Positions 29,188-64,000 of a stretch of DNA of 64,000 nt are shown here, piece by piece. The position numbers were made by a program, and so were the translations under genes. The notes under the pieces were generated by a model. It saw nothing but the letters and a program-made list of their open reading frames with translations, made no database searches and was not told the origin of the DNA. Where the stretch lies: contig CAWDSK010000005.1 of assembly GCA_963804995.1 (NCBI GenBank), positions 256,001-320,000 on the forward strand. Reading direction: 5' to 3'. The DNA comes from an uncultured Acidobacteriota bacterium. Lineage in GTDB: Bacteria > Acidobacteriota > Terriglobia > UBA7540. The first letter of the stretch is position 1. The number at the start of each line of letters is the position of its first letter.

Positions 29188-29290
29188 ATCGGATCATCGG
29201 TTCATCGGGCCATCGGGAGATTGAAAGACCAACCCTGCGAAGTTGCTCTTGATGGACCGATGAGCCGATGGCCAGATGGACCGATTGAAC
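29188..29290. repeat. Octamer hairpin, (ATCGGNNC)n...(GATGRNCC)n, between atpD and atpC
   Basis: atcggatc atcggttc atcgggcc atcgg ... gatggacc gatgagcc gatggcca gatggacc gat. Confidence 0.85.
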
Positions 29291-45551: not shown

Positions 45552-45633
45552 GAGTCAAGAAGCGGCGGCGATCAGCCGCCAGAATTTAACCTATTGCTCG
45601 TACGGGACGCTGTGCGAGTGAGGGCGGCGGTGG

Positions 45634-46374
45634 GTGCACACGCTGCCGCTGCCCAAAGTGACCAGGCAACAAATACAATTTCTTCTCCGGGTCGCACCCC
45701 CGGCCCTCCAAAGCGAGCGCGAGTACGAAATCCCGGCCTGCATCACCCTGGCGCAAGCGATTCTGGAAAGCGCCACACCCAGGTTCGGCTGGGGAAGTTC
45801 CCGCCTGTTCCGCCTGGCGAATAATCCGTTCGGGATCAAGTACAGCCACAGGCCGGGGGTCGAAAGTCAAAAGTTGAAAGTTGAAAGTGCGCTTGAAAGT
45901 TCGAATTTGAAAGTTCAAAGCCAGGGCGCGGTTGTCAGCGCGGTTTCAACTTTAAACTCTCAACCTTTAACCTCTTCCCTCAACTCTCAACTTTCAACTT
46001 CCGCCCCCGAAGACTACGGCCACTTCGATGTGGCGACCTGGGAATTCATCAACGGGCAAAAGAAAGAAGTTTTTGCACAGTTTCAGCGCTTCCCCGACCT
46101 GACCGAGGCCTTCAAGGCGCACGCGCGGTTGCTTCTTTCGCCGCACTACCGGCCGGCGTACGAGGTGCGTCACGACTGGAAACAGTTTGCGGAGCGGCTG
46201 GGTCCTAAAAAGTCGCAGCAGGACACCGACCATTGTGGGTATTCCACAAACCCCAGCTACTCCGCCTTGCTTATTAATTTGGTTAATACCTATCGTCTGG
46301 ACGACCCCCGCGCACAAGAGTGGCTGTCAACCGGAAAGGATCCCGGTCCGGTGCTGGAGCAACTGTTGGCGTGA
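45634..46374 (+). CDS. GH73 glucosaminidase/FlgJ-like peptidoglycan hydrolase (endolysin), with an in-frame repeat insert
   Basis: ITLAQAILES..GWG.S.L...NNPFGIK, TWEF, F.RF, GYSTNPSY; low-complexity insert at ~45856-46008. Confidence 0.85.
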   Translation: MHTLPLPKVTRQQIQFLLRVAPPALQSEREYEIPACITLAQAILESATPRFGWGSSRLFRLANNPFGIKYSHRPGVESQKLKVESALESSNLKVQSQGAVVSAVSTLNSQPLTSSLNSQLSTSAPEDYGHFDVATWEFINGQKKEVFAQFQRFPDLTEAFKAHARLLLSPHYRPAYEVRHDWKQFAERLGPKKSQQDTDHCGYSTNPSYSALLINLVNTYRLDDPRAQEWLSTGKDPGPVLEQLLA

Positions 46375-46537
46375 TTAGACATAGCTATCAGCTATCAGCT
46401 TTCAGCTCTCAGCTAGGGCGTTGGCCCGAAGGGTGAACCCTGATACCTGAAAGGCGAAGGTTGAACGTTGATAGGTGAAAGCTGATGACTGAAAGCTGAT
46501 AGCTGAAAGCTGACGACTGAAAGCTGATGGAGGTCTT

Positions 46538-47089
46538 ATGAAGTTTCGCAATCTTATTCTTGCAACGGTTTTAGGTATGGTCACTCTCAGCCTGGCCTGC
46601 ACGCCTCCTTCCTGGGCCGTGGAGGCGGAGAACATCGCCAAAGTGGCGCTCCCCATCGTCGAAGGCATTGCCACGATTGTGGGCGCGGGGCCGGCCGTTA
46701 CCCAGGTTGCAAATGACATCAATCTGCTTATCACCTTGTTTGATAGATACCAGTCCACACCAAGCGCCGGCGCGCTGCAGCAGATTCAGGCGGGCCTTGC
46801 CACCGCGAACGCGGATATCCAGCAGATTCTAGCCGCGACGCACATCCAGAATACGGCTACGCAGAACAAAGTGACCGCGATTCTCCAGCTTGTCTTGAGC
46901 GAGTTTTCGAGTATTGCAAGTCTGGTGCCAGAGGCAGTAGGCAGTGGGCAAAAGGCAGTAGGCAGCAAGCCGGCCCCGGAACTTCCGTTCACCGCCTCGC
47001 AGTTCAAGGCCCAGTACAACCGCATCGTGAAGGCGAAGACCGGCGATGCGGAATGCGACAGAGTGTTTGCAGGCAAGGAACTGAAGTAA
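46538..47089 (+). CDS. Lipoprotein in the lysis cassette (possibly spanin-like)
   Basis: GGAGG RBS; MKFRNLILATVLGMVTLSLAC lipobox; helical body. Confidence 0.65.
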   Translation: MKFRNLILATVLGMVTLSLACTPPSWAVEAENIAKVALPIVEGIATIVGAGPAVTQVANDINLLITLFDRYQSTPSAGALQQIQAGLATANADIQQILAATHIQNTATQNKVTAILQLVLSEFSSIASLVPEAVGSGQKAVGSKPAPELPFTASQFKAQYNRIVKAKTGDAECDRVFAGKELK

Positions 47090-47194
47090 TCGGCTCATCT
47101 TTTCATCGGCTCATCGGGCCATCTAAGAACAAAGCCCGTGAGCGGCCGATGAACCGATGAACCGATGGGTCGATGAACCGATAAGAGACTAACT

Positions 47195-48379
47195 ATGGCA
47201 GCCAACCACTCCACAATGCGACTCGGCAAGCGTCCCCGGCGCGACGACCCGCGCACGCTGAAACTGGCAAGGTATCTCCTGCCGGGCGCCTGGGCGGCGG
47301 CGATCGCTCCTCCCTCGAGCTGTGATTACACCCGCGGCATCAAGGGTTGGGGAATGATGCTCAACGACAAGCTCGGCTGCTGCACGATTGCCGCCGTCGG
47401 CCATGCCGTACAGATTTGGACCGCCAATGCCAGCAAGGAAATTACCGTTCCGGACTCTACCATCCTTAGTTATTACGAACGATGGGATGGCTACAATCCC
47501 CAGGATGCATCGACCGACCGGGGTGGCGTTGAGCTCGACGTGCTGAACGATTGGCGGCAGCAGGGATTTAGTGGGCATTCTCTTGATGCCTATGTTTCTG
47601 TCGGGTTAGGGAACAGGGAACAGGGAACAGGAAACAAAGGCCAGGGAACAGGGAATAGGGAACAGGGAACAGGAAACAAAGGCCAGGGAATAGGGAATAG
47701 GGAACAGGGAACAGGAAACAAAGGCCAGGGAACAGGGAATAGGGAACAGGGAACAGGAAACAAAGGCCAGGGAATAGGGAATAGGGAACAGGGAACAGGA
47801 AACAAAGGCCAGGGAACAGGGAATAGGGAACAGGGAACAGGAAACAAAGGCCAGGGAATAGGGAACAAAGGCCAGGGAATAGGGAACAGGGAACAGGGAA
47901 TAGAGGCGGAAGTACAGAACCCAACCCCCAGCACCCAGGGCCCCGTCCCTAGCCCCCAGCCCCCAACCGCCAACTCCGATATTGCTTTGGCCATCTGGCT
48001 TTTTGGCGGGGCTTACATCGGCGTGCAATTGCCCATCACGGCCCAGAACCAGAATGTCTGGGACGTGCCGCAAAATCCCGGACCGAATGACGAGCCCGGC
48101 TCGTGGGGCGGGCACGCGATCTATCTGGTGGGGTATGACACACGGGATACGGGTAGTGTTTTTCCTAACCCCCAGTCCCCAGCCCCCAGCACCCAGTCCC
48201 CAACTTTCACTTGCATCACCTGGGGCAAATTGAAACGCCTGACCTGGGCCTGGCTGGAGAAGTATTGCGACGAAGCCTATGCACTGGTTTCGAAGGATTG
48301 GATCAAGGCGAACGGAATCGCGCCTTCGGGATTCGATTTCGCCACGCTGGAAGCGGACCTGAAGTTAGTCACTGCGTAG
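47195..48379 (+). CDS. Papain-like (C1-type) cysteine peptidase with an internal tandem-repeat expansion
   Basis: MMLNDKLGCCTIAA (catalytic Cys region), WGGHAIYLVGYD (His), CITWG; 14-aa repeat x6. Confidence 0.75.
   Translation: MAANHSTMRLGKRPRRDDPRTLKLARYLLPGAWAAAIAPPSSCDYTRGIKGWGMMLNDKLGCCTIAAVGHAVQIWTANASKEITVPDSTILSYYERWDGYNPQDASTDRGGVELDVLNDWRQQGFSGHSLDAYVSVGLGNREQGTGNKGQGTGNREQGTGNKGQGIGNREQGTGNKGQGTGNREQGTGNKGQGIGNREQGTGNKGQGTGNREQGTGNKGQGIGNKGQGIGNREQGIEAEVQNPTPSTQGPVPSPQPPTANSDIALAIWLFGGAYIGVQLPITAQNQNVWDVPQNPGPNDEPGSWGGHAIYLVGYDTRDTGSVFPNPQSPAPSTQSPTFTCITWGKLKRLTWAWLEKYCDEAYALVSKDWIKANGIAPSGFDFATLEADLKLVTA
47608..47901 (+). repeat. Heptamer-based VNTR (GGGAACA/GGGAATA/GGAAACA/AAGGCCA) with a 42-bp higher-order unit
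   Basis: Encodes (GNREQGTGNKGQG[T/I])x6 plus partial copies. Confidence 0.95.
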
Positions 48380-48486
48380 GAGCTTCACCACCAAGGCACA
48401 AAGGCACCAAGAAATGCCTTGGGTTTCTAACTCATTCAGCTTGGTGTCTTGGTGCCTTGGTGGTTTGACTTTTTCTCGGAGAATTT

Positions 48487-48834
48487 ATGGACCCGCAATC
48501 ATTGCAAGTACAAGCCCTGATCACTTTTCTAACTCCGCTCTTGATTCAGCTCGCCAAGCGCAGCCGGTCACGGGCGCTGGCTTGGATCGATCAGAGCAAA
48601 CCGAATATTTGTATTTTGACCAGCGCTGTGACGGCCCTTTTGACCTGTACGGAGATTGAGGTCATTCACGCTCCTCACAGCCTGACGATTACCTGGCCGG
48701 ACGAGGCCACGCTGGTGCGGGGGATTCTGACTTTCCTGGTGGCGGCGGCAGTGCAATTTGGCGGCCAGCATGTCTTTTACGATTCCTTCTGGCGGCATGT
48801 GGTGCCGACGGAGAAGTTAGAAGCGAGGAGCTAG
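48487..48834 (+). CDS. Putative holin (small multi-TM protein)
   Basis: 115 aa, 2-3 hydrophobic segments, GGAG RBS, lies after the lysins. Confidence 0.55.
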   Translation: MDPQSLQVQALITFLTPLLIQLAKRSRSRALAWIDQSKPNICILTSAVTALLTCTEIEVIHAPHSLTITWPDEATLVRGILTFLVAAAVQFGGQHVFYDSFWRHVVPTEKLEARS

Positions 48835-49070
48835 GAGTTAGAAACGAGAAGTGAGAAGTCAGGAGTGTGTAGTGAGGAGTTAGAAGTTAGAAGTGAGGAG
48901 TTAGGAGTGAGGAGTCAGGAGTGAGTAGTTTTGAGCGAGGAGTGAGGAGTGAGAAGTAAGGAGTAAGCAGTGAGAAGCGAGAGGCGAGAATGAAAGTGTC
49001 TTCTAACTCCTAGCTCCTAACTTCTAACTCCTAGCTTCTCGCTCCTAACTCCTAGCCTTTGGAAACTTCC

Positions 49071-49424
49071 ATGATTTCTGCAGCGGAAATTCAAGCGATG
49101 TTGATCGGCGCCGGGGGGTTTGTGGGCACCAGCGTGGCGGGAATAGGAGCCTTTCGATTTTTCTCCCGCGCCTCGCATGGGGTCCTCACGATTCCCTCCA
49201 GCCTGGAGAGGGGCGCCGAGGCGCTGGAGCGATCGGTAAAAGTCGCCGAGACGCACAACGCCCTCAGCACGACGGTCATGGAGCTGAAGGGCATGCTGAC
49301 CGCGACGCGCGAGGATATCCAGAAAGTGATGCTAGAACGCCAGGAGATCGGCCGTGAACTTCGAATCATGTCACGAAAGATTGAGGGTTTTTCCTGCTAT
49401 GCCGAAGACCAAGAGCAAAGTTGA
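49071..49424 (+). CDS. TM + coiled-coil protein (Mu gp25-like position)
   Basis: N-terminal hydrophobic segment then coiled coil; overlaps the next gene. Confidence 0.55.
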   Translation: MISAAEIQAMLIGAGGFVGTSVAGIGAFRFFSRASHGVLTIPSSLERGAEALERSVKVAETHNALSTTVMELKGMLTATREDIQKVMLERQEIGRELRIMSRKIEGFSCYAEDQEQS

Positions 49425-49704
49425 ATTCGAACTCAACCGCACTGAGATTCTCCGCTACCTGAATGAATGCGGCTTTCAGCCCGTGACCCCGCGGAGCATC
49501 TTGATTTACTTGGACGATAGCCTCCGCCCCGTTTCCGACCAGGCCGTGGAGTTTCAATTGCGCTACATGCGCGATCGGAACTGGGTGGAGCTGGGCAGTG
49601 AGAAACGTATCGGCCGCCCGGAAGTCATCCGTTGGGCGCGCATCACCGCCGACGGCGTCGATGAATATGACCGGCGGGCCGCGGCGCTGGGAGAGGTCAG
49701 ATGA
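49399..49704 (+). CDS. Mu gp26-like winged-helix protein
   Basis: RTEILRYL...VEFQLRYMRDRNWVEL...ARITADGVD pattern, positioned before the TerS-like genes. Confidence 0.65.
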   Translation: MPKTKSKVEFELNRTEILRYLNECGFQPVTPRSILIYLDDSLRPVSDQAVEFQLRYMRDRNWVELGSEKRIGRPEVIRWARITADGVDEYDRRAAALGEVR

Positions 49705-49823
49705 TCGGCTCATCGGTTCATCTTTCCATCGGCTCATCGAATCATTAGCTCTTAGATGACCCGATGACCCGATGGCCCGATGACCCGATAGTCCGATGAC
49801 CCGATTCGGAAAGATTTCAAATT

Positions 49824-50108
49824 ATGACCAGACCGACCCATATCGAAGCACTTGACCGGCGCCTTCCGGGTCTTGCGGACGCGGTGAAAGCCTGGTTCAA
49901 CCAGGGTGTACCCGTGCGCCAGGTCGTGGAGCTGATCCGCCGGCAGTATCACATCGCGGTGCCTCGGTCGACGCTCGGCAACTTTCGGGCCCGGCGCTGG
50001 GCGCGCGATCGCGAGCTTAGGCTGGAGAAGGAACCCGAGGCCAGGGCCACTGCCGATGGGGCCGATGAGTCTATCCGGCAGGCCGCGGCGCCCGAAGCGA
50101 TTCGATGA
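49824..50108 (+). CDS. Small-terminase-like (DUF3486 / Mu gp27 N-domain) HTH protein, paralog 1
   Basis: IEALDRRLPGLADAVKAWF...VVELIRRQY...PRSTLGNFRARRW. Confidence 0.55.
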   Translation: MTRPTHIEALDRRLPGLADAVKAWFNQGVPVRQVVELIRRQYHIAVPRSTLGNFRARRWARDRELRLEKEPEARATADGADESIRQAAAPEAIR

Positions 50109-50185
50109 GTAAGTGATTTAGCCATGGCGTGATGGAGCAATTGTAAAGCCCCAAATCACTCATTGCCAGGAACCGATTAAGGGAG

Positions 50186-50458
50186 TTGAAACTCGTGGGA
50201 CGAAAAGGGGTCACCAAGCTGCATTCGCTTGACGCTCGACACCCCGGGTTGTGCCAGAAGGTGGATGCGATGTTTGCGGCTTTCGCGAGCATCGATGCTG
50301 TCGCGGCAATGATCCGGGCCGAATTTGGCGAGCCCATCGGCCACGCCACCGTTTGGGAGTACAAGAGGCAAATCTGGAGCGTGCGGCGCAGGAGGGATCA
50401 GGCGGCCAGAGCGGCCCTGACCGCCTATGAGGAATTGGCAAGCGAGGGGAGAAACTAA
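50186..50458 (+). CDS. Small-terminase-like HTH protein, paralog 2
   Basis: KLHSLDARHPGLCQKVDAMF...VAAMIRAEF.E.IG.ATVWEYKRQIW aligns by eye with its neighbours. Confidence 0.55.
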   Translation: MKLVGRKGVTKLHSLDARHPGLCQKVDAMFAAFASIDAVAAMIRAEFGEPIGHATVWEYKRQIWSVRRRRDQAARAALTAYEELASEGRN

Positions 50459-51049
50459 GTGCCCAAAGATCAGGCATGCAAACTGCAAATCCTGAGCGTC
50501 AAACACCCGGGCCTCCTGCAGGTTGTGGACACGATGTTCGAGAAGTTTGCGACTGTCGCGCAAGTCCAGCGGATGATCGAGCAAAAGTATCACGAAGACG
50601 TCGGCACGACCGCCGTCAGGAGCTACAAGCAAAAACATTGGCAGGTTCACAAGGATCAGATCTGCGAGCTGAAAACGGCCATGAAAGCCGTCTCGGAGCT
50701 GGTCGGCGAAGACGGCCTAACTGCCGGTGTGAACGCCTTGCTCTGGGAAGGCCTGCAGGAGATGACGGTGCCGCAATTGATGGCCTTTAAGAAAGTCTTG
50801 AACGACGGCGAGAAGGTCAGGCTGATGAAAAAGCACTTCGCCCTCTACGCTCAGGAGCACCGCCAGAAGATGCGGGAACGCACCAGCATGCAAGCGGGCA
50901 AGGGGAACATCGAGGTCGTCGAGGATTTCGACGCGGCCCGGCGAATGGTGGAACAAGCAAAGGAAATTTTCGGGATCGGGACAACGGTCATCGTCCCGCC
51001 CGTGCCGAAGCTGGAGGCGGTCGCCGCCGCCGGCGACGTGAACGCGTAA
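50459..51049 (+). CDS. Putative terminase small subunit (DUF3486-like), paralog 3, full length
   Basis: KLQILSVKHPGLLQVVDTMF...VQRMIEQKY.E.VGTTAVRSYKQKHW, helical C-terminus ending KEIFGI, last gene before TerL. Confidence 0.6.
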   Translation: MPKDQACKLQILSVKHPGLLQVVDTMFEKFATVAQVQRMIEQKYHEDVGTTAVRSYKQKHWQVHKDQICELKTAMKAVSELVGEDGLTAGVNALLWEGLQEMTVPQLMAFKKVLNDGEKVRLMKKHFALYAQEHRQKMRERTSMQAGKGNIEVVEDFDAARRMVEQAKEIFGIGTTVIVPPVPKLEAVAAAGDVNA

Positions 51050-51127
51050 GAAATTCGGAATGATGAATACGAAATGATAAAGGCGAATCCTGAGAAATGC
51101 GCACTTCATCACGACCGTCAGGTCGGT

Positions 51128-51335
51128 TCCCCGCAGGGGATAAATTTAATAGCCGGGGGCAACGCCCCCGGTGGGCGGAAATCCTCATCTTTGCTGACCC
51201 TGAAGGGGTCACATTGGAATCGAGGGGCAGGGAACGAACTCGACACGGATTATCGACCCCTTCAGGGTCGGCTCGTGGCTCGTTGCGTTTCCGGGGGCGT
51301 TGCCCCCGGCTATTATCTTGCGCCCTTGCAGGGCT
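51128..51335. repeat. REPIN-like long inverted repeat between terS and terL
   Basis: TAGCCGGGGGCAACGCCCCCGG...GACCCTGAAGGGGTC / GACCCCTTCAGGGTC...CCGGGGGCGTTGCCCCCGGCTA. Confidence 0.8.
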
Positions 51336-51504
51336 CAGGAACGAGCACGGACCTCTTTTCTAGGTCCGCGGCCCTTCGGCAGGGTCGATAAGAAAAGCCG
51401 CAGACCCTGAAAGACAAGCGCTACGCCGATGGAGCGTCCCGATTTATCGGGACGGCGGCGGTCGCAGACCGCCGCTACAGACGAAAGAGCAAGGCAAAAG
51501 GTAA

Positions 51505-53100
51505 ATGGCAAAACGGAAAGGTTCCAATTCGCCGATCACCCGATCTCCGATTTCGGGAGTCCGATGGACTCCCTCGGAGTCCGCAGATCGGACACCCGAT
51601 CTCCGATTTCAGGAGTCCGATGGGCTCCCTCGGAGTCCGCAGATCGGACACCCGATCACCGGATCGCCCGACGCGGTGCCTGAGACCCCAATGGACCGGC
51701 TTCGGACTCTGGCGAAGAAATCGATCCCCGTTCTCCCTTACCAGGACCGCTGGATTATGGACGACTCGCAATTGAAGATCGCGGTTTGGAGCCGGCAGAG
51801 CGGCAAGAGTTTTGCCGCCGCGCTGCGGGCCGTGCTCAAGTGCCTGGGCTCCCGCACCCAATACATCATTCTCTCCAAGGGCGAGCGCCAGTCGCGGCTG
51901 TTTATGGAAAAGGTCAAAGACTTCTGCGTGTTCTTCAAGAGACTGAAGGCATTGCCGGCCTTTGCTGAGTTGGACTCGGACGAGAAAACCATGGAGGTCT
52001 ATTTCCCGCACAACCGCTCGCGCATCATCGGCCTGCCGGCCAATCCGGACACGGCGCGCGGCTACAGCGGAAACATCGTGCTCGACGAGTTTGCCTTCCA
52101 CGGCGACGCCCGCAAAATCTATGCTGCCTGCTTTCCTATTATCACGCGCGGGTATTCGATTGAAGTTATTTCCACGCCTAATGGCACGGCGGGGAAGTTT
52201 TATGAGATTGCGAAGGCGGCCGGATTGACGGGCGGGCAGTGGGCAGGTGGGCAGGTAGGCAGTTGAGATATTTCCCATCTGCCCATCTCCCCATCTGCCC
52301 ATCTGCCTAATCTTTGGTCCGGCCACCGAGTGGACATCCACGAAGCGGTCGCGCAGGGCCTGCCCGCCAACATCAATCTGCTCCGTTCCGGCTGCGACGA
52401 CGAAGAGACCTGGCTCCAGGAATACTGCTGCCAATTCCTTTCCGACGCCGCGAACTACATTCCGATTGAGCTGATTCTGACCTGCGTGCATGAAGCGGCC
52501 ACGACGGACCTGAGCGCGGTGGACCTGGCGGGGCTCGAGGGCAAGGAACTTTACCTGGGGATCGATATCGGGCGGAAGCGCGACCTCACCATCGCCTGGC
52601 TCTTTGAAAGGCGCGACGGGGTGCTGTGGTCGCGGGTCCTCCTGGCTCTGAAGGACATGACCTTTGACGCGCAGGAAAAACTCCTCTTCAGCCTTATGGA
52701 TTTGGGAGTGCGGCGCGCGGGGATTGACGCTTCCGGCCTCGGCATGATGCTGGCGGAACACGCCGTCGAAAAGTACGGCGCAGTGGTGGAGCCCACCACT
52801 TTCACCATGCAATTGAAGGAACGCCTGGCGCCGATGGTGAAACAGGCTTTCGAGGATCGCACCGTGCGGATTCCGGATTCGCGGGAGGTGCGCGCCGACA
52901 TCAACTCCGTCAAGCGCTTCGTAACGCCCTCCGGAAACGTGCGCTTTGATGCTGAGCATACCGACCGGGGACACGCCGACCGCTTCTGGGCGCTGGCGCA
53001 GGTCATCAGCACCGCCACCCAGCCGGTGGCGCACTTTGAAGAAGCCGCCTCCCTGGTGGGCGCGCCGGTGACGGCGGGAATAATGGATGCGATCTTGTAG
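51505..53100 (+). CDS. terL: Terminase large subunit (Mu gp28-like), split by an in-frame TGA at 52264-52266 inside a hairpin insert
   Basis: LPYQ..W, WSRQSGKS (Walker A), LPANPDTARG, VLDEFAF (Walker B), ISTPNG; same frame continues with QEYCCQF, LGIDIGRKRD, IDASGLG, HADRFWALA. Confidence 0.9.
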
Positions 53101-53306
53101 CGCCGCCGTCCCGGCGGCACAGGCCACAGGCCGGCAAGATGCCGGCGTTACGGTGGGCGCTCCGGTGACGGCGGGGCTGATGGAGCAGATTTTGTAATCG
53201 GGCCATTCACGGATCGGGTCATCGGATCATCGGGCCATCTGACAACAACGATGAACCGATCAATCGAGGGTTTGATGAACCGATGGACCGATGGAAAGAT
53301 GAACCG

Positions 53307-55080: not shown

Positions 55081-55245
55081 GGGTGGGCGTCAGGAGCGGG
55101 AAAACAGCAGTCAGGAGACACGCAACCGGCTGTGCCTGCTGAGGGCAAAGACGAAAAGCAAGGCAGGTGAAGTGATCAGCAAGACCCAGCGGTCCGCCGA
55201 ATGTTGGATGGAGGCGGAGGGCTGGCAGCTTGAAATGGAGAGGCT

Positions 55246-55764
55246 ATGACAACCTTACGGAATTCCTTGGTTCTTTCTTTCTCGATCGCGGTCCTGATCG
55301 TGCTGATGGCGCTTCCGACCTGGCGCCCGCCGCAGGTGAGGGCTGATTCCTACAGCTCGCATCGCTTCCCGGCGTTCGGGTACATTCTGGACAATCCCAT
55401 CCTGACAATTGCCGGGGCGACCACGACGACCAGCCCCACATCTACCACCGGCTCGACGACGGCGCACCTGACCTGGGTCTTCGGGACGGTATCCGGCACC
55501 TACACGACTTGCACGGTGCAGGCAAGAACCAGCTTCGACGGTGTCACTTGGCTGAATCTCGGGAGCGCGGCTTCGGTAACCGTCACCAGCAATGCCGTCA
55601 ACGCCTGGGATATCTATCAACAGGCGCCCGTAACTACCGGCGTGACCACCACTACGGTCAGTAACTCCGCGGCGGCGGGATTCGGCCAGTTGAGCGAGTA
55701 CACCTTCGCCTGCTCCGCCTACGGAACCAGCGCGCCGGTCACGATCACGGCGATCTATAAGTGA
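55246..55764 (+). CDS. Thr-rich beta protein with a signal peptide (head module, unknown function)
   Basis: GGAGAGG RBS; hydrophobic N-terminus ending VRA-DS; TVQARTSFDGVTWLNLG. Confidence 0.7.
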   Translation: MTTLRNSLVLSFSIAVLIVLMALPTWRPPQVRADSYSSHRFPAFGYILDNPILTIAGATTTTSPTSTTGSTTAHLTWVFGTVSGTYTTCTVQARTSFDGVTWLNLGSAASVTVTSNAVNAWDIYQQAPVTTGVTTTTVSNSAAAGFGQLSEYTFACSAYGTSAPVTITAIYK

Positions 55765-55845
55765 AGCCGACAGTTGACAGCGCACTGTTCATCGTCGGCT
55801 GTTAGCTGAGAGCGGTAAGCCCAATAAAAACGATAAGGAGCACAC

Positions 55846-56856
55846 ATGACAAAGTTCAAGGCAAGTCTGCTGATAACACTTCTGTTTACGGTCTTGGGTT
55901 CATTGCCTTCCAGCCTTTTTGGCCAAGGATCGGCTGGGCCAGTCTTGGGCGGCACCAACTACTCAAGCCTCGAGGGGAGTTTTGGCATCCCTAGCGTTTC
56001 CTGGGCTGCGACAGGCCTGACGCTCAACTACACAGCCGGCACCGTCTATCAGAAAGGCGCCGCAAACTCCATTAACTTAGGAAGCCTAACCTTAACGACG
56101 AACATGACCTCCTGTTCTCTCGCGGGGATCCTGGCGGGCTCCTGCAACCTGGTGTACTGGTCAGGATCGGGCAGCGCGCTCGCCTCCACCACGTCCTATC
56201 CGACCGCCGCCGCGAGCGGCAGCACGATTCTCTATTTCTGTACGGCGAACGTCAGCGGCAACATCACCGGCTGCGTCGTCGCAACGGAAGACGTGCTGGG
56301 TGCGATCCCGGCCACTTACAACGATGGCCTGCTCATGGTGCCAGTCACCAATTGCAGCTTTACCCCGGTCACCACAGCATTTACGGGTACACCGGGGCTG
56401 GTGCGATTGGTGGCAAATCAGACCACCTGGAGCGGCACAACCAACACCACGGCCGGAACGATTTACATGAGCTGCGATTTGGGCCTCGAAGGTCGCGTCA
56501 CTCCCGGTTTGGGATTTGTGGTCAAGGATATCGCCGTTCAGTACGGCGTCCAAGGCGTGGCCTTGTCTTCCATTACCACGCCCACGCTCAAGACCAATAC
56601 CTTCCCGGCCTACGGCGGCTCGGCCGGCGACACCCTGGCCGCGGTCGGTGGCACGATTACCAGCAACCCCGGCGTGCTGCAACTGGCCACAACGACTTCG
56701 GGCAACTTCTATAACGCAGACTTTATTTGCGGGACCCCATTCACCCTGACGGATCAAACCAAGGTGAATTTCGAAGTGGCCCTCAACACCCCGGGCACGA
56801 CCGGCCTGACTTTGCAGGTCAGCGGACTGCTAGTGCATGGGAACTGGATTCAGTAG
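55846..56856 (+). CDS. Thr/Gly-rich beta protein with a signal peptide (head module, unknown function)
   Basis: AAGGAG RBS; MTKFKASLLITLLFTVLGSLPSSLFG-Q. Confidence 0.75.
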   Translation: MTKFKASLLITLLFTVLGSLPSSLFGQGSAGPVLGGTNYSSLEGSFGIPSVSWAATGLTLNYTAGTVYQKGAANSINLGSLTLTTNMTSCSLAGILAGSCNLVYWSGSGSALASTTSYPTAAASGSTILYFCTANVSGNITGCVVATEDVLGAIPATYNDGLLMVPVTNCSFTPVTTAFTGTPGLVRLVANQTTWSGTTNTTAGTIYMSCDLGLEGRVTPGLGFVVKDIAVQYGVQGVALSSITTPTLKTNTFPAYGGSAGDTLAAVGGTITSNPGVLQLATTTSGNFYNADFICGTPFTLTDQTKVNFEVALNTPGTTGLTLQVSGLLVHGNWIQ

Positions 56857-56947
56857 ATCGGTAGGGCGTGGATGGCAGGTCGCATACAGGGGGAAACCCC
56901 AGCTACTACCTGCCACGCACCACACAACCTTTTTGGAGAGCGCTACG

Positions 56948-58357
56948 ATGTCAGACGACACAAAGAATTTTCACTTCATCTCCCAGCTTAGTGCGATGCC
57001 GGCCGCGGGCCTGGCGCGCCTTCCGATTCTCGTCACGGGCAGTTGGGTAAAAAACGGGCGGGAGGTTTCCTTCACACTGGATGAGCTGCGCGCTGCAGTC
57101 TCGAACTTCCGGAAACTCGCAAACCACGACATCAACGTTGACTATGACCACGCCTGCGAGGATCTGGAACGAGCTGCTGGCGAGCCTACGCCCAGCGCCG
57201 GGCGCGTCGTGGCACTTCTTGAGCCAGCGCCCTTCGAATCGGGTGATCAGGTGATCGCGAGATCAGGTGAAGAGGAAAGCCGATCACCGGATCACCAGAT
57301 CACCGGATCATCCGATCGTTGGATTCTATATGGCCGCTACGAGCCCACGGACCGCGCCCGCGAACTTATTAAGAACCGGGAATATCGGTATGTTTCAGCG
57401 GCCTTTGCGAAAGACTACCCGGACCGGAAGACCGGTGAGTCCCAGGGCCTGACGCTGACCAGTGTGGCCCTCACCAATCAACCTTTTCTCGACGAACTGC
57501 CGGAAATTTGGCTGGCAACTACAAGTCCGGGGTCCGAAGTTCGGAGTCCGAAATCCCAACCCCGAATTGCAGATCCCGAATCCCTGAACACAGACCGCCG
57601 TCAGGCGGGGAACGGAGGAAGAATTGAAATGGCGAAGCTAACCCTCAGGTGCTCCGCGGACGGCAAACACGAAGCCTACGACGGAGACAACAAGCTCGGT
57701 GAAATCGAACACGACCACCTCTGCCAGTATGCTGCACAGCATTTGGGCATGGCGGCGGGTTCCGAAAAGGACGAAACGGGCGCGCAACTGGCCGCGAATT
57801 TTGCCAGGGAAATCGGCGCAGAAGGCAGATCCCGCGAAGAGATCCGCGGCCTGCTGACGCTCGCGCTCCATCCACTCAAAGCCGAGGTGACACTGCTGTG
57901 CGAAACCATCGGCGCGGACGGCAAGCTCAACAATAGCCGGCTGGACGCGCTCGACGACGGCGGCAAAATCTCCCGCACGGCCTGGCGCCGCGCTAAGGAC
58001 GCCGAGCAGCGCGTGCAGAATGCCTTCCAGCGTGGCCAGATTACTCCGGCCATGATGGCGACGGGCGCGCCGCTGCGTCTGGCGCTTTCCGACGGTGCGG
58101 CCTTCAAATCGCTTATCGAAGACCGTCCGGCCATGGTCAAGCTGAACTCGGTAGTGGGCATCGGCGGCACAGGCACAGAAACTGGTGAGTCGCCGCGTCA
58201 CCTCTTCTCACGCATGGTCGAGGAGAAAAAGCGGCAGCTCATGCAGACGGACAACAGGCTCAGCGAGCTCGAGGCGCACCGCCAGGCGAACGCCCTGGTG
58301 GCCAAGGAAAACCCCGACCTGCTCAAGAACTATCGTGCCGACGCCAAGTCGGCGTGA
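56948..58357 (+). CDS. Mu gpI-like prohead protease / scaffold
   Basis: INVDYDH, SAGRV, TDRARELIKNREYRYVSAAF, LTSVALTNQPFLDEL. Confidence 0.88.
   Translation: MSDDTKNFHFISQLSAMPAAGLARLPILVTGSWVKNGREVSFTLDELRAAVSNFRKLANHDINVDYDHACEDLERAAGEPTPSAGRVVALLEPAPFESGDQVIARSGEEESRSPDHQITGSSDRWILYGRYEPTDRARELIKNREYRYVSAAFAKDYPDRKTGESQGLTLTSVALTNQPFLDELPEIWLATTSPGSEVRSPKSQPRIADPESLNTDRRQAGNGGRIEMAKLTLRCSADGKHEAYDGDNKLGEIEHDHLCQYAAQHLGMAAGSEKDETGAQLAANFAREIGAEGRSREEIRGLLTLALHPLKAEVTLLCETIGADGKLNNSRLDALDDGGKISRTAWRRAKDAEQRVQNAFQRGQITPAMMATGAPLRLALSDGAAFKSLIEDRPAMVKLNSVVGIGGTGTETGESPRHLFSRMVEEKKRQLMQTDNRLSELEAHRQANALVAKENPDLLKNYRADAKSA
57629..58357 (+). CDS. Probable nested scaffolding protein (Mu gpZ-like internal start)
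   Basis: In-frame ATG 57629 preceded by GGAGG at ~57614, just after the protease domain. Confidence 0.55.
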   Translation: MAKLTLRCSADGKHEAYDGDNKLGEIEHDHLCQYAAQHLGMAAGSEKDETGAQLAANFAREIGAEGRSREEIRGLLTLALHPLKAEVTLLCETIGADGKLNNSRLDALDDGGKISRTAWRRAKDAEQRVQNAFQRGQITPAMMATGAPLRLALSDGAAFKSLIEDRPAMVKLNSVVGIGGTGTETGESPRHLFSRMVEEKKRQLMQTDNRLSELEAHRQANALVAKENPDLLKNYRADAKSA

Positions 58358-58531
58358 CGACGGCAGCGCTCAGCAAGGACTAGCCGTCAGCGGCCAGCAT
58401 TGAACTTTGCCTTGCCGCTGATAGCAAATGAAAGAAGTGCTCAACTGGAACCAGCGATCAGCAGTCAGCTAGAGATTTAGCTGAACACTGAAAGCTGAGA
58501 GCTTACAGCTTCATTTTGACAAGGAGGAAAC

Positions 58532-59035
58532 ATGCTTGGAAACCAAGGATTGACAGCGGCCAAGTTCGACACCAATATTCGCGCCTTGCGCGGTACGGTC
58601 ATGGGCTTGCCGGTCACGAATCTCTCAACGGAATCCGATTTCTACGCCGGCCTGCCTTCCGGCTTCAATGTCGTGCCAACGGGTGTTCTGGCTCAGGATG
58701 TGGTTGAGCCCGGCTACCCCCTGACCTCGGAATTGTGGCTCGATCCGAACACGGGCAATCCCATTAACGGCTCCGTGCCTCCGGCGCCTTTCATTTCGCA
58801 AGGCCGCGCCTGGGGATTGATTGTCTTCGCCCCGGAAGCGGAAGTGATCGCGGCGGATACCACCATCCAGGCCGAGGACGACGTGGTCATCGCCGACGCC
58901 TACGGGCGAGTCACGTCGATTCGCAACGTCACAACTGGGAATACTGCCTACGTGGTGGGCAAGGCGAAGTACCCGCCCACCGCGCAAAACCAGAAGATCC
59001 GCATTCAGGTGAATTTGCGGCAAGTGAAGGTCTAA
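58532..59035 (+). CDS. Putative capsid cement/decoration protein (DUF2190-like position)
   Basis: AAGGAGG RBS; GVLAQD...IQAEDDVVIADAYGRV...VGKA; lies between scaffold and capsid. Confidence 0.6.
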   Translation: MLGNQGLTAAKFDTNIRALRGTVMGLPVTNLSTESDFYAGLPSGFNVVPTGVLAQDVVEPGYPLTSELWLDPNTGNPINGSVPPAPFISQGRAWGLIVFAPEAEVIAADTTIQAEDDVVIADAYGRVTSIRNVTTGNTAYVVGKAKYPPTAQNQKIRIQVNLRQVKV

Positions 59036-59243
59036 GAACGCGGGACTGGGGAAACGGGACACGGGAAGAACAAGTCCCGCGCTCCGCGGCCCCTGTTCCG
59101 CGCCCCGGCGTTTCAGCGCCCGCTGTTGAATCCCGCGGCTACGGGACAACGACAGTGCGCGCAATTAGGGATCAACGATTCGTGTAAGGGATTCGGGCCT
59201 TCCCGTGTCCCGAGTCCCGAGTCCCGTATCCCGAGGAAAGAAC

Positions 59244-60185
59244 ATGGAAGTTTCCTTAGCGCATCTTGATCAATTTCTGACCAATTATTCAATCGTGTAC
59301 CGCAACAACGATTTTGTGGCGGGCCGGCTCTTCCCCGACTTCCCGGTCTCGAAACAAAACGATCGCTACCCGATGTTCGGATTCGAACGTTTCAAGGCTT
59401 ACAACACCGAACGCGCCCCGGGCAGCGAGGCCAACGAGATGCCCGGGTGGCGCATGTCGAACGATGAGTATTACTGCGACGGCAAGGCCCAGAAGCAGCT
59501 TATCCCCGACGAACTGCGCGCCAAGTGGGATTTCTCAACGGGACCCGAAGTTTTCACGACCGAGACCCTGGCCGACATCATCGACAAACAACGTGAAATC
59601 CAGGTCTTCAACCTGGTTATGAATTCGGCATCGATCCCCAGCACCACGCTGGCGGGCACGGGCCAGTGGAGTGATTTTCAGAACTCGGATCCCGTGGCTG
59701 CCATTACGGCACAACGCTCCACGATTCTGCTCTCCTGCACCAAGGAGCCGAACACCCTTCTGGTCGGCTACCCCGTCTGGTTGCAGCTCATCCAGCACCC
59801 CATCATTCTTGACCGCTTCAAGAACCACGCCCTGCCGCTCGGCTATCCCACCGATCAGCAGTTGGCCGGGCTCTTCAATGTTGACAACTTTGTGGTTGCC
59901 AAGACGCTGTATGACACTGCCCAACAGGGTATGGCTCACAGCCTCAACTATATCTGGGGCAAGAACGCCGTCCTGGCCTACGTACCGCCGGGACAGGGCC
60001 AGTTGATGATCACCCCGGGCACCACTTTCCGCTGGCTTTATGGCGTTCCTCAGAACGGCGGCATGCTGGTGAAGCGCTATCGGGTGGAGGAGCGCAGCGG
60101 GGACATGATCGAATACCAGACGTACTACTGCGTAAAACTTGTCGTGCCGGGCGCGATGTACGTGTTTAAGAGCGCTGTAGCATAG
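59244..60185 (+). CDS. Major capsid protein
   Basis: LTNYSIVYRN..FVA..LFP, RAPG, QWSD..NSDP, PNTLLVG..VW..L..HP, YIWGKNAVLAY, G.TF. Confidence 0.88.
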   Translation: MEVSLAHLDQFLTNYSIVYRNNDFVAGRLFPDFPVSKQNDRYPMFGFERFKAYNTERAPGSEANEMPGWRMSNDEYYCDGKAQKQLIPDELRAKWDFSTGPEVFTTETLADIIDKQREIQVFNLVMNSASIPSTTLAGTGQWSDFQNSDPVAAITAQRSTILLSCTKEPNTLLVGYPVWLQLIQHPIILDRFKNHALPLGYPTDQQLAGLFNVDNFVVAKTLYDTAQQGMAHSLNYIWGKNAVLAYVPPGQGQLMITPGTTFRWLYGVPQNGGMLVKRYRVEERSGDMIEYQTYYCVKLVVPGAMYVFKSAVA

Positions 60186-60275
60186 CGACGGAAGGAAGTG
60201 AGGAGTGAGAAGCTAGAAGTGAGAATGGTTTGCTTCTAGCTTCTACCTCCTAGCTCCTAGCTTCTGGAGGTTTTG

Positions 60276-60620
60276 ATGCCCAAGTTTCAAGTTCTACAAC
60301 CTATTGAGAAAAACAATGTGATGTACGTTCCCATCGCCAGTAGTGGGCCAAAGCAATTGCCCAGCGCTTGTCATGGGAAGCTCATCCCGGTGGATGCCTC
60401 GGGTGAGATCGAGCTAACCGAAGATGAAGCCAGCATCCTCGTCTACGGCCAAGTTCCCCTGTTCCAGGGCAAGCCGGACCGGATCGGCGGCTCGGAGATC
60501 CGGGAGAAGAAGGCCAAAGAGGATGCGAAGGCGGCCGCCACCAAGGCGGCGGCCGAGAAAGCGGAGTACGAAGAGTTTCAAGCCTTCAAGGCAGCGAAGG
60601 CAGGAAAAAGCAAGAAATAG
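60276..60620 (+). CDS. Hypothetical virion-associated protein
   Basis: GGAGG RBS; IELTEDEA motif; Lys/Ala-rich tail. Confidence 0.65.
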   Translation: MPKFQVLQPIEKNNVMYVPIASSGPKQLPSACHGKLIPVDASGEIELTEDEASILVYGQVPLFQGKPDRIGGSEIREKKAKEDAKAAATKAAAEKAEYEEFQAFKAAKAGKSKK

Positions 60621-60721
60621 GTTGAAAGTCGAGGGTTGAAAGTCGAAAGGTACTTGCCTTCAACTTTTAACATTCACCTTTTGACCTCCGACTAATTGGA
60701 AGTTCTTGAAAGGAGCCAAAA

Positions 60722-61012
60722 ATGGCAGCTTCAGCAACATTCACGACGCTCTTCACCTACCGCTTGGATCGCCGCCAGCTTGTGAGGCGGATCCGGGTGG
60801 ACATCACGGGGCTCGCCAACGGTGCGAACACAATCCCCCACGGAATTGTGGCCCCCAATAATCCGGCGGTGGGCCAAATGCCCAAAGAGGAGATTGTTCT
60901 CCTGACGTCCAACGTGGCCGTACACCGCACCCAGCCGGCCGATGCTACGAATGTGTATTACACAGTCGATTCGGGTGCGGGTACGACGATCTCAGTATAT
61001 GTGACCGTATAG
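60722..61012 (+). CDS. Hypothetical small beta protein
   Basis: AAGGAG RBS, clean ORF within the operon. Confidence 0.65.
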   Translation: MAASATFTTLFTYRLDRRQLVRRIRVDITGLANGANTIPHGIVAPNNPAVGQMPKEEIVLLTSNVAVHRTQPADATNVYYTVDSGAGTTISVYVTV

Positions 61013-61106
61013 GGTGAGCGGCCCTCGCCCATTTGTGATCGCGTGATTGGTGATTTGCGATTTTCAATCACCAATCACCGATCGCCAAATCGCTAATTGA
61101 GGTCTT

Positions 61107-61640
61107 ATGTCCTACACAACTGTAACCAATGTCGCGGCAATGTTCCCCACCTTCACCCGCAACGGGCCGAAGGGACCCTCGGACACGCTCATCCAGACCT
61201 TTATAGATGACGTGGCGGCGGAAATCGATGCGGTCCTACAGCGCCGCTTCCAGGAAGCTTACGCCAGCCTGGGATTCTATGTCTGGCAGGCGGCCTTCAG
61301 CACCGACCAATTGAACCTGTTGGAGAAAATGAACCGTTACGGTGCCTGTGCCCAGCTCGCGGAGGTATTCGAAACTGCCGGGATTGCGTCCGCGTTGCGC
61401 GTCGCGAAGGGTTTTGAGGATAATTTCCAGGAATCGTACAACAAGCTCAACGCTCGCGACCAAGCGGGCAAGCCGCTCCCGCAGGGTGGGGACTTCGATT
61501 ATCTGTTTGATCCGCAGGCCAAAGTCGAAACGCCACGCCCGCAATTGGGTGGCATTGCCGGAGGCGATCAACAACCCAGTGAGACCGATCACGAAGGAAC
61601 GAATGTGAATTTTCGGAAGTGGGACCGGAAAGAATTTTAA
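61107..61640 (+). CDS. Head-tail adaptor (Mu gp36 / gp6-like)
   Basis: MSYTTVTNV...IQTFIDDVAAEIDAVL..R pattern, and position. Confidence 0.7.
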   Translation: MSYTTVTNVAAMFPTFTRNGPKGPSDTLIQTFIDDVAAEIDAVLQRRFQEAYASLGFYVWQAAFSTDQLNLLEKMNRYGACAQLAEVFETAGIASALRVAKGFEDNFQESYNKLNARDQAGKPLPQGGDFDYLFDPQAKVETPRPQLGGIAGGDQQPSETDHEGTNVNFRKWDRKEF

Positions 61641-61728
61641 AGGGTAAAGGATAAAGGGTAAAGGATGAACCTGGCGTCGTTCGCTTTAGCCTTTAACCTT
61701 TACACTTTAACCTTTTGGATAACAAATC

Positions 61729-62301
61729 ATGTCCTGGCAACAAGCTTACCAAGCCCAATTCGCAAAACCGCTGGTCAACCAGCTTATCGCCATCATCCAG
61801 CGTGATCAGGCTGCGGCGCTCGCGATCATCAACACCGCGCGCGCCACTGACGGCAATCAGCCGCTTTACCCTATCGCGGAATTTCACAAGGGTCCCGGTG
61901 CGCGGATGGGCTGGCCCTGGCTCTTCGTGGAGGTCGGCCCCACGAACTTCAATCGCAACAGTGACAAGGCTACCCGGCATCATGAGGTGCGCATCAATTT
62001 GGCGCTCGACACCGGGCAATACGACCAGGAGATGGCCCAGGAAGATGCGCAGGACTACGCGCGCATGCTCGACATGATTATCGCGAGCGCCGGGCCGTGG
62101 CCGTCTCTCGCCGACTGGACGACGGCGTTGCCGATTCAGCATGAGACCGTACAAAGCGGAACCACGGTGCCGAATGCTGGCGGGTCAGTTAGCGATGTCT
62201 TTATTGAATCGCATGTGCCGGCGAAGATCAACGTCCCCGGTGTGGATGCCCCCGTGATGCGCATCACGCTGACGGTACTTTTCGAATTGGAAGAAGTGTA
62301 G
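61729..62301 (+). CDS. Putative tail terminator/completion protein
   Basis: Position before the tail tube; WPWLFVE motif, acidic C-terminus ELEEV. Confidence 0.55.
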   Translation: MSWQQAYQAQFAKPLVNQLIAIIQRDQAAALAIINTARATDGNQPLYPIAEFHKGPGARMGWPWLFVEVGPTNFNRNSDKATRHHEVRINLALDTGQYDQEMAQEDAQDYARMLDMIIASAGPWPSLADWTTALPIQHETVQSGTTVPNAGGSVSDVFIESHVPAKINVPGVDAPVMRITLTVLFELEEV

Positions 62302-62397
62302 AGAAAGAAGCGGTTAGCAAGGACTGGCAGCCAGCGCTCGGCTTAAGGTTTTAGCTGATTGCTGAAAGCTGACAGCAGTCCTTGAAAGGAGCTGAAA

Positions 62398-63186
62398 ATG
62401 CCTCTCGGAACTCCCAGCCCGACCCTGATTCATCAAGGCCCTGGCTGGCTCTATTTGAATGTCTGTGCGCCGGCCACGGGCAAGCGGCACATCATTGTCT
62501 CAGACGGGACGCCCACGCAGCCGGTGTGGTCGGCGTCGCAAGGGGTCACCCCCGGGCAGATGATTGTGGATACCAACGGCAACCTTCAGGAGTGCACAAC
62601 AGGCGGCACAACGGGAAGCCTCGCGCCCGGCACCTGGTGCAACGCAGTTGGCGCCACCACCTCCGATGGTGCGAACGTGATCTGGACTTGCATGGCCGTG
62701 GGCCCGGCTTATCTTTTTGCCGGCGCACTGGAGGGCGCTACCGATCTCGATATCGGAGCTAAGGTGGAAGAAACGACCGCCGACCAGGAAACCCTTCCCA
62801 TCGATGCGGTGATGACCGGCGAAGTGGACTCAGTCGCCGTGACGCTGAAGGAATCCGATTGCGCCAAGTTGCAGCTTTTGGTTCCCCACGGCACGTACGC
62901 CTCAGGCTCTGACAGTGCCTTGCCCACGGGCGCACAGACTTATGAAGAAATCGCCTTTGGCGGCCTCAAGCCTGTGCCCAAGTTCGGAGTGCTGCTCATC
63001 TCGAAGCGCAAGGACCAGAACTCCAAGTTCGTCATCTCCCAAATCTACCGCGCCTATCAAAAGGAGACGGTGAAGCTTCCCTTCCAACGCGGTAAGGAGA
63101 CGACTTTCAAGGTTACCTTCCAAGCCATCGCGGACCAGAACCGTCCAGTTGGCGATCGGGGCGGGAAGGTTTATCGGCAGACGTAG
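62398..63186 (+). CDS. Major tail tube protein (siphovirus type) with an inserted small domain
   Basis: IHQGPGWLY, GALEG, TLKE, IAFGG, FKVTFQA; no sheath gene precedes it. Confidence 0.75.
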   Translation: MPLGTPSPTLIHQGPGWLYLNVCAPATGKRHIIVSDGTPTQPVWSASQGVTPGQMIVDTNGNLQECTTGGTTGSLAPGTWCNAVGATTSDGANVIWTCMAVGPAYLFAGALEGATDLDIGAKVEETTADQETLPIDAVMTGEVDSVAVTLKESDCAKLQLLVPHGTYASGSDSALPTGAQTYEEIAFGGLKPVPKFGVLLISKRKDQNSKFVISQIYRAYQKETVKLPFQRGKETTFKVTFQAIADQNRPVGDRGGKVYRQT

Positions 63187-63250
63187 TGCGCGGAACAACA
63201 GCATCCGTTGTCAATTCCTGATGACTGATAGCTGAGAACTGAGAACCACC

Positions 63251-63833
63251 ATGACTGAAAACGGAATTGCCAAACCCGAAGATTTCAAGCGGGCCGTCGC
63301 AACGCTCAATGTTCGAGCGGGTGATGCTGCCCGCCTCCGGACTCACCGTGCTGCTTTGCCGGCCACCCATTTTCGCGGCGCTGCGGCTGGGCCGCGAAGG
63401 CACGGAACTTCAAGCCAAGATTACGGAAGCCAAGCCGGAGGAGATTAGGCCCGAGGACATCACGGCGTTCTCCGACTGGGTCACGGCAACACTTTCTCGG
63501 CTTTTTGTGCAACCGCGCTTCTCCGGCGCACCCACGTCCGATGAGATCGGCCTGGGCGATATTCTCGTGGAGGATCTGAAATACATATTTCGTTGGCTGA
63601 GGGGCGAGGTCTTTAGTGCAGGGAATAGGGAATCGGGAATGGGGAGTGGGGAAGGTCCCAACTCCCAACTCCCGACTCCCGACTCCCACACTGAAGACCT
63701 CGCGCCCTTTCCTGGCGGACCGCGATCGGCTTCTGTATCTGGCGGAGGTAGCGAAACGCAGCCAGTGCCGGCCCAGCCAGTTGCTGGAACTCAAGGGGAT
63801 GCCGGCCTACTTGCTGGACTGCACCGCGGCTGA
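63251..63833 (+). CDS. Tail assembly chaperone (apparent 1-nt insertion near 63297)
   Basis: MTENGIAKPEDFKRA joins ERVMLPASGLTVLLCRP...LFVQPR...EDLKYIFRW if one base is removed; follows the tail tube. Confidence 0.65.
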
Positions 63834-63894
63834 AATGGTTGTAGCGCGTGACCGAGGCGAGTTTGAGACGGAAGGGAATGTGGTGGAGTGGTGA
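63709..63894 (+). CDS. Frameshift extension of the tail chaperone (GT-like)
   Basis: +1 frame after CCC TTT C gives FLADRDRLLYLAEVAKRSQCRPSQLL...AYLLD; no RBS or start of its own. Confidence 0.55.
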   Translation, partial: FLADRDRLLYLAEVAKRSQCRPSQLLELKGMPAYLLDCTAAEMVVARDRGEFETEGNVVEW

Positions 63895-64000
63895 AGAAAG
63901 CCATCAGCTCTCAGCCGTGAGCGATCAGCTCGTACCCCTCAGCCCCAGCCATCTCCTCCGGGGAGAGGGTGGCTGACGAAGGAGACTGGTGAAGAGTTTC

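Follow-up and report, generated by a model that had tools for sequence, protein, structure and literature searches.

Hairpins of tandem 7- and 8-mers, most likely translated, in tolerant loops of a likely gene transfer agent-like cluster of Acidobacteriota

Introduction

Short repeats and palindromes have been described inside genes of several bacterial lineages; small repeats in cyanobacterial genes, for example, were reportedly treated by Elhai in 2008. Rickettsia palindromic elements (RPEs) and intragenic GTAG/CGTC repetitive extragenic palindromes (REPs) are in-frame palindromes in working genes, according to the accessible text of the sources (PMC3733652, PMC3184786). The heptamer repeats of Xanthomonas, Nostoc and Beggiatoaceae often form inverted pairs and are partly intragenic; G-quadruplex or regulatory roles have been proposed for them, and the accessible sections of the papers report no general link to mobile elements (PMC4692102, PMC4679880). 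In the P6b stem-loop (Class I/II) of the Nostoc trnL intron, one heptamer hairpin has repeatedly been replaced by another (PMC4476775, in part), and ORF-bearing intervening sequences (IVSs) of 23S rRNA (S23p, PF05635), including a Coxiella element with heptamer repeats, are cut by RNase III (PMC4990558, in part). Criteria for domesticated head-tail clusters come from RcGTA-type gene transfer agents (GTAs; PMC5721377, in part). Here we describe hairpins with arms of tandem 7- and 8-mers in a 64,000-nt stretch, hereafter the window, from an uncultured soil bacterium of the Acidobacteriota, class Terriglobia (genome G000, 7.55 Mb, 58% GC; contig C5, positions 256001-320000), and compare them with relatives from the same class. 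We consider it probable that these hairpins are host-wide elements, likely relatives of gene-carrying cassettes, which sit in tolerant loops of a likely GTA-like cluster, are most likely translated there and are probably replaced at times.

Palindromes in frame, hairpins of heptamers and the replacement of hairpins have each been reported on their own. Our literature search, outside of which lay most subscription papers and supplements, found no publication on the cassette-hairpin system, on a Terriglobia GTA-like cluster, or joining these parts.

Results

Hairpin inserts within and between the cluster genes

A first-pass annotation of the window had listed 7- and 8-mer arrays, usually followed by their reverse complement, inside virion and lysis genes. 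Such arrays are present at every site that it listed; intergenic spacers and host operons contain them at least as often. The features are given below, with window coordinates; z is the fold score against dinucleotide shuffles.

45168-64000, + strand: GTA-like cluster, continuing to about C5:333120
45856-46008, + strand: in-frame GAAAGTT-type hairpin in the GH73 (Glucosaminidase) lysin gene (45634-46374)
46383-46528, no strand assigned: intergenic AGCTATC/CTGAAAG hairpin, its unit differing by no more than one change from a four-helix-bundle cassette arm
46932-46965, + strand: single in-frame AGGCAGT arm in the putative lipoprotein gene (46538-47089); z +0.9, no hairpin
47607-47965, + strand: in-frame expanded AGGGAAC arm and mismatched second arm in the peptidase-like gene (47195-48379)
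48140-48205, + strand: decayed second insert of the peptidase-like gene; its 22 aa compare with 3 aa in two relatives
51505-53100: TerL gene
51520-51723, + strand: insert in the TerL N-terminal extension, with 8-mer arms and a 56-nt unit present twice; absent from the first-pass list
52231-52314, + strand: GGGCAGGT/CCCATCTG hairpin at the end of the TerL ATPase domain
53283-55080: Mu-type portal gene
53432-53491, + strand: GGCAG-type hairpin in the portal N-terminal region
56948-58357: protease gene
57238-57317, + strand: ATCRGGTG/GATCACCG hairpin in the Mu-like head protease
57523-57585, + strand: AGTCCGG-type hairpin in a low-confidence linker after the protease domain
59244-60185: capsid gene
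62398-63186: tube-like gene
63620-63688, + strand: AGGGAAT/TCCCAAC hairpin near the end of the chaperone-like gene
47089-47185, 48389-48467, 48811-49053, 49697-49805 and 53213-53310: further intergenic cluster hairpins
59038-59235, 60195-60265, 61031-61088 and 61637-61715: further intergenic cluster hairpins
24996-25147, 27606-27718 and 29188-29285 (within 24996-29285): hairpins between genes of the host ATP synthase operon

Seven sites form clear hairpins (z -3.0 to -6.6), namely those in the lysin, portal and chaperone-like genes, both protease sites and both TerL sites, the N-terminal one included. The lipoprotein site carries one arm only, as had been noted. The two peptidase sites, which had been listed as well, have mismatched or decayed arms and fold poorly (z +3.2 and -0.5). 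The AGGGAAC arm at 47607 consists of 6.2 copies of a 42-nt higher-order unit, and the loop that contains it measures 138 aa here versus 19 aa in two relatives. We call this gene peptidase-like: one Atlas cluster set has Peptidase_C1 on 20% of its members, which keeps some substance in the earlier label "C1 peptidase", but Pfam and PDB searches gave no match. The labels lipoprotein, holin-like, tube-like, decoration, chaperone-like and tape measure were assigned by position and the look of the sequence, with no family match.

Across the gene copies compared, arrays occur at internal positions in 20 of 23 TerL, 18 of 23 portal, 19 of 20 protease and 12 of 15 chaperone genes; none was found inside capsid, tube or decoration genes (0/20 each) or holin-like genes (0/15). 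The relatives' inserts occupy the same loops and are 3 to 255 residues long.

Reading frame, stop codons and strand asymmetry

The inserts are most likely translated as disordered peptide loops, as judged from the following sequence comparisons. We counted repeat-bearing loops of at least 45 nt in single-frame gene copies of the genus, which excluded 19 of 305 copies with frame changes. On this basis 142 of 144 loops lack an in-frame stop, whereas the two alternative sense frames are open in 121 of 288 cases, and the neutral chance of being both in frame and stop-free is approximately 0.12. The two exceptions are the TerL loop of G000 and a loop close to the end of a portal gene. Across 19 loci, 42 codons would be stops in pure consensus arrays, and actual stops at these codons number zero. 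Hydrophobic codons within arrays are also fewer than expected (293 observed, 361 expected).

The first-pass annotation had stated that arm mismatches are often compatible with G-U pairing on the sense strand. The asymmetry runs in the opposite direction: the antisense strand folds more stably at 8 of 10 window sites, and on the sense strand of coding hairpins in the relatives' loci there are 88 A.C versus 30 G.T mismatches, with the sense strand folding better in 18 of 75. For intergenic hairpins in these loci the counts are 61 G.T and 73 A.C, and the sense strand is favored in 85 of 158. Split by codon position, the strand bias amounts to 45:78 at position 1, 31:85 at position 2 and 48:61 at position 3, where it is not clear; the intergenic value is 375:361. 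A bias at codon positions 1 and 2 is what selection at the protein level would produce by removing stops and hydrophobic codons.

Structure models agree with the placement in loops that had been suggested earlier. The predicted local distance difference test score (pLDDT) falls below 50 in both protease inserts and in each of the four variable regions of a relative's TerL, around a confident core, and the protease insert at 57238 corresponds to model residues 100-123, flanked by two strands; low pLDDT is expected for unaligned inserts, so that these models support the reading rather than prove it.

Several observations weigh against translation. The hairpin loop of the G000 TerL insert holds an in-frame TGA at 52264-52266, which the first-pass annotation had overlooked when stating that the inserts keep the frame; the length of this insert does keep it, and the remaining 18 aligned genus copies are open at the site. 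Frame counts were based on alignment columns and on inspection of 15 of the 19 frame-changed copies, in which approximately 6 breaks lie inside the insert and approximately 11 outside it or at its edge. Most frame-changed copies come from assemblies of few contigs, but the inside-insert breaks of the G042 and G024 portal genes are in assemblies of many contigs, and these two may be real.

Frameshifts in G000 at atpG (~26908), portal (~54415), the chaperone-like gene (~63312) and C3:918718 all fall at TCGA, a motif with a chance of 0.13 per 30-nt window. This suggests systematic base-calling error, and the TCGA frameshifts are likely assembly or base-calling artifacts; split genes in this genome need caution. 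Programmed frameshifting in the portal gene or at the chaperone start was ruled out on the same grounds, both sites being at TCGA like that of atpG. The TCGA pattern offers no explanation for the TerL TGA. A related hairpin at C2:400031-400106 differs at the position of this TGA, and one substitution, real or erroneous, therefore explains it. The genome carries tRNA-Sec; selenocysteine read-through of the TGA, which lies in the hairpin loop and precedes the pyrimidine arm, is unlikely by eye.

The TGA would be harmless if the hairpins were cut from the mRNA or skipped by the ribosome, in the manner of an IVS or intron, and the mature proteins lacked the insert; the approximately six breaks inside relatives' inserts also speak for this reading. 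Such removal or bypass was the second option of the first-pass annotation, and the cargo family discussed below is indeed known from rRNA IVSs cut by RNase III, one of which has heptamer repeats (PMC4990558, in part). Under this scheme, the one-by-one repair of 42 of 42 consensus stops and the openness of 142 of 144 loops would be difficult to account for. In coding hairpins the sense strand folds less stably, and no inserts occur in the high-copy structural genes, those for capsid, tube, decoration and holin-like proteins. Moreover, RNase III cleavage without re-ligation would destroy an mRNA. We regard RNA-level removal as unlikely, indeed quite improbable. Translation as loops appears well supported, in accordance with the first option of the annotation, a repeat family that colonizes permissive protein loops as Rickettsia palindromic elements and cyanobacterial heptamers do.

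Probable turnover of hairpins at fixed sites

The repeat unit differs in 31 of 41 closest-pair comparisons. In the lysin, where the variable loop spans 45850-46014 (55 aa), the 12 loops of relatives and G000 have 12 distinct first units. At the chaperone site, all filled congeners have a loop of 60-69 nt with arms from about ten unit families, both arms being changed together; 10 distinct first units occur among 13 repeat-bearing rows (one of them misaligned), two genomes have a non-tandem hairpin instead, and the site is short or empty in three genomes of other genera. Nested inserts are found at the TerL and portal sites of relatives, as are REP-like hairpins, some of the GTAG type, and alleles with no insert. 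Most simply read, each new hairpin would target one that already resides in a tolerated loop.

Two results count against the reading preferred here. Loops within one genome share units barely above background (0.060 versus 0.048), and at most sites no relative is truly empty, which fits independent filling as well as replacement.

The same patterns could in principle arise with no mobile unit, by slippage and template switching between arms, the cargo genes being merely flanked by such repeats. Higher-order expansions such as the 42-nt unit repeated six times at 47607 are in line with this, as are chaperone-site units that lie few changes apart, some with a common apex sequence, the sharing of units at the same site (0.123 versus a background of 0.048), and the lack of any target-site duplication evident by eye at four sites. 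On the other hand, a single site may hold a 7-mer, an 8-mer or a non-tandem hairpin in different sister species, some genomes with 0-4 cassettes lack cluster arrays altogether (G045, G103, G068), and a related hairpin with a similar loop lies elsewhere in the genome (C2:400031). We therefore consider local expansion unlikely as the full explanation, and retain a mobile hairpin; local slippage and arm-to-arm copying also act on the loops.

Repeats across the host genome

The repeats are a property of the host genome, in which Tandem Repeats Finder returned 1215 period-7 and 604 period-8 rows versus 144 of period 6. A hairpin was called when an array had a reverse-complement partner within 250 nt. 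This holds for 641 of 1613 genomic arrays versus 3 of 1613 at random places, so the inverted pairing is not due to chance. In total the genome has 419 hairpins, approximately 60 of which belong to a C-rich REP-like family without true tandem arms; most are intergenic, host operons included. Among 257 bins of 30 kb, the one containing the cluster is the densest (16 hairpins versus a mean of 1.6). This density of about ten times the genome average probably arises because the cluster is old, has many spacers and is rarely expressed.

Genuine-looking in-frame inserts also occur in host genes, five of them in four ORFs: Mfd, a family B polymerase with two, a Rad51-like ORF, and the linker of a glycosyltransferase-methyltransferase. 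Of 11 in-ORF candidates, 4 were dropped as likely shadow ORFs. The Mfd site is short in 2 of 4 relatives. The family B DNA polymerase (C5:219061-223089, L117) has two large nested hairpin inserts and stands beside the Rad51-like ORF with one, forming a second local hotspot. Genome-wide, hairpins between co-oriented genes showed no clear strand bias (sense more stable in 111 of 195, control 80 of 150; G.T 96 versus A.C 88), and noise kept hairpins that interrupt host genes from being told apart from operon junctions.

Link to four-helix-bundle and GxxExxY cassettes

The genome has 15 matches to the PF05635 four-helix-bundle family, 6 to PF13366, which we take to be the GxxExxY type, and 14 to Y1 transposases. 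Inverted 7-9-mer arms enclose 13 of the 15 PF05635 genes and 4 of the 6 PF13366 genes, and were found around none of the 10 Y1 loci fetched and examined. The cluster inserts in the window are gene-less, the arm-enclosed PF05635 cassettes lying elsewhere in the genome, but in 10 of 16 cluster hairpins the unit differs by at most one change from that of a four-helix-bundle cassette arm (a count made without a shuffled control). PF05635 was found in 130 of 133 genomes of the family, and cassette copy number tracks the array density of the cluster (Spearman 0.68 across 42 genomes, related ones not being independent). The window hairpins are thus likely gene-less relatives of four-helix-bundle and GxxExxY cassettes, and the cassette proteins are, by association, the prime suspects for moving them. 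Set against this kinship, 6 of the 16 cluster hairpins match no cassette arm in the genome, and by our arithmetic a chance match is expected about 1 time in 5.

A likely GTA-like cluster

The cluster runs in the order small regulator-like ORF, lysin, lipoprotein, peptidase-like, holin-like, TerL, portal, protease, capsid, tube-like and chaperone-like genes, and continues beyond the window with tail-like ORFs to about C5:333120, a 276-aa ORF being in the tape-measure position. The first-pass annotation had treated the locus as phage; it behaves instead as a vertically kept host cluster, and its repeats are host-wide. It looks GTA-like because its capsid gene evolves under purifying selection and is kept by this Terriglobia family in 110 of 133 genomes. 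Within the class sample, the capsid is present in 34 of 41 family genomes versus 6 of 209 in the rest. Clear TerL orthologues are present in 19 of 24 sampled congeners; two more tallied matches are repeat-derived or distant. As a practical warning, 7/8-mer repeats yield spurious protein matches, which in the TerL search affected G007 and most G017 rows.

Gene order is conserved among relatives. Ratios of nonsynonymous to synonymous substitution (dN/dS) were computed for four cluster genes and host atpA, with medians of 0.05 for capsid, 0.08 for tube, 0.12 for decoration, 0.21 for protease and 0.06 for atpA, and dS is similar. The capsid is as conserved as ATP synthase alpha. Host and cluster distances are correlated (Mantel rho 0.60; 1 of 2000 permutations). 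Among the cluster ORFs scanned, many of which have no match at all, none matched an integrase or replication family. Head, tail and lysis genes without replication or integration family matches, clade-wide retention, slow evolution and host-like descent are together the features by which GTAs are recognized, and from these gene comparisons the locus is likely a domesticated, vertically kept, GTA-like host cluster. Less favorable to this assignment, the trees agree only in part (common splits make up 3 of 7 supported host and 6 of 13 cluster splits), and flanking genes are common only within two sub-groups and differ in G000.

The TerL stop and the portal (~54415) and chaperone (~63312) frameshifts of this assembly would also be expected of a decaying prophage, in which the inserts are debris in dead genes. 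Both frameshifts, however, are at TCGA, like the atpG and C3:918718 breaks, and purifying selection and family-wide retention contradict decay, which we hold to be very improbable. The cluster may have lost its function recently in this one strain.

Extra capsid copies, 80-84% identical, occur at seven loci in relatives (L085 and L088-L093), several per genome in G009, G013 and G018. No TerL or portal match was found in the fetched stretch of any, and each has 0-2 repeat arrays; they are possibly mobile elements that hijack particles. These loci, and the position of variable loops in TerL, portal and protease, would suit an adaptive role, in which variable modules help packaging and maturation proteins to avoid hijack by capsid-carrying elements. 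The same inserts are nevertheless found in Mfd and a polymerase, and neutrality explains the pattern; an adaptive role has, in our view, hardly any likelihood, and we keep to hairpins tolerated in loops.

Other features of the cluster were recorded. Upstream of TerL, three small related ORFs (49824-51049), which vary in number among relatives and one of which has a weak PHROG repressor match, are possible small-terminase or regulator paralogues, and a non-tandem REP-like doublet (51130-51335) resembles by eye the flanks of Y1 transposases at C6:2002130 and C2:514878. A 336-aa secreted-looking ORF between portal and protease (55846-56856) is present in only 4 of the congener loci compared, and other genomes have different long inserts in this gap. 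The two large ORFs of the cluster (1723 and 1647 aa) have no Pfam or NCBIfam match. A Foldseek search with the protease model returned nothing at E ≤0.001, the best match being the T4 gp21 protease at E 0.024. Outside the cluster, an 882-aa Ig-domain ORF precedes a 506-aa ORF that aligns with no more than the C-terminal half of an outer-membrane barrel model (34412-38696), possibly a split gene, and an array of 26 tRNA genes occupies approximately 4 kb at C5:1304904-1309125.

Discussion

We propose the following course of events. A hairpin would land at the DNA level, and only frame-preserving copies in surface loops would survive. Point changes would then remove stops and hydrophobic codons, which would also weaken the mRNA stem, while the arms may grow by unit slippage. 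The resident hairpin would become the preferred target of the next insertion or replacement.

Comparison with described systems, limited to the accessible parts of the papers cited above, places these hairpins between several of them. Like RPEs and intragenic REPs, they are in-frame palindromes that add 20-80 aa in linkers and loops, including those of DNA repair and replication genes (here Mfd and the polymerase). Unlike them, the ten window inserts have tandem 7/8-mer arms in place of a single non-tandem GTAG/CGTC-tagged stem, many unit families coexist in one genome, and hairpins are probably exchanged serially at fixed sites. Instead of the link between REPs and REP-associated tyrosine transposases (RAYTs), the link here is to four-helix-bundle and GxxExxY genes, with no 7-9-mer arms at the Y1 loci. 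The system works like an RPE built from heptamers, but falls outside the RPE/REP sequence definition and lacks the RAYT link. With the heptamers of Xanthomonas, Nostoc and Beggiatoaceae it shares runs of about four 7-mer units, frequent convergent pairs, a predominance between co-oriented genes and an intragenic minority, and GGGAAT- and GGGGAC-like units recur here; what differs is that more than ten families coexist and flank cargo genes.

As in the Nostoc P6b loop, one hairpin appears to be swapped for another at the same site with a similar structure retained, but P6b is one non-coding site with two classes, whereas here about a dozen protein-coding sites and many families appear to be filtered by translation. 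Like the rRNA IVSs, the cassettes have PF05635 cargo inside an inverted-repeat stem; unlike IVSs, which are cut from rRNA, the hairpins sit in mRNA-coding DNA and behave as if translated. Miniature inverted-repeat transposable elements are marked by target-site duplications and a cognate transposase; here no duplication was evident by eye at four sites, and the cargo has no known catalytic role. The cluster resembles RcGTA in being a head-tail cluster conserved across a host clade, with slow evolution and host-like GC, and differs in its Mu-type portal and protease, its Acidobacteriota host and a location stable only within sub-lineages.

For the biology of this family, the comparison provides a test of whether heptamer hairpins in genes are read as protein, through stop repair, codon-position bias and absence from capsid and tube genes, and it extends hairpin-for-hairpin replacement from one Nostoc intron loop to many protein loops. 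It also ties heptamer repeats, long orphans, to the four-helix-bundle family and names sites at which junctions can be compared. A bolder proposal, which we put forward tentatively and consider doubtful, is that four-helix-bundle (Avd-like) and GxxExxY cassettes drive an undescribed form of mobility by which one short hairpin takes over the position of another, irrespective of its repeat unit. If true, fixed protein loops would be rewritten repeatedly, and the GTA-like cluster would be the densest record of this process, with a dozen sites of datable exchange and readable junctions. Finally, the inserts mark which loops tolerate insertions in the terminase, the portal and the head protease of a GTA-like particle, as yet unstudied and predicted from its genes.

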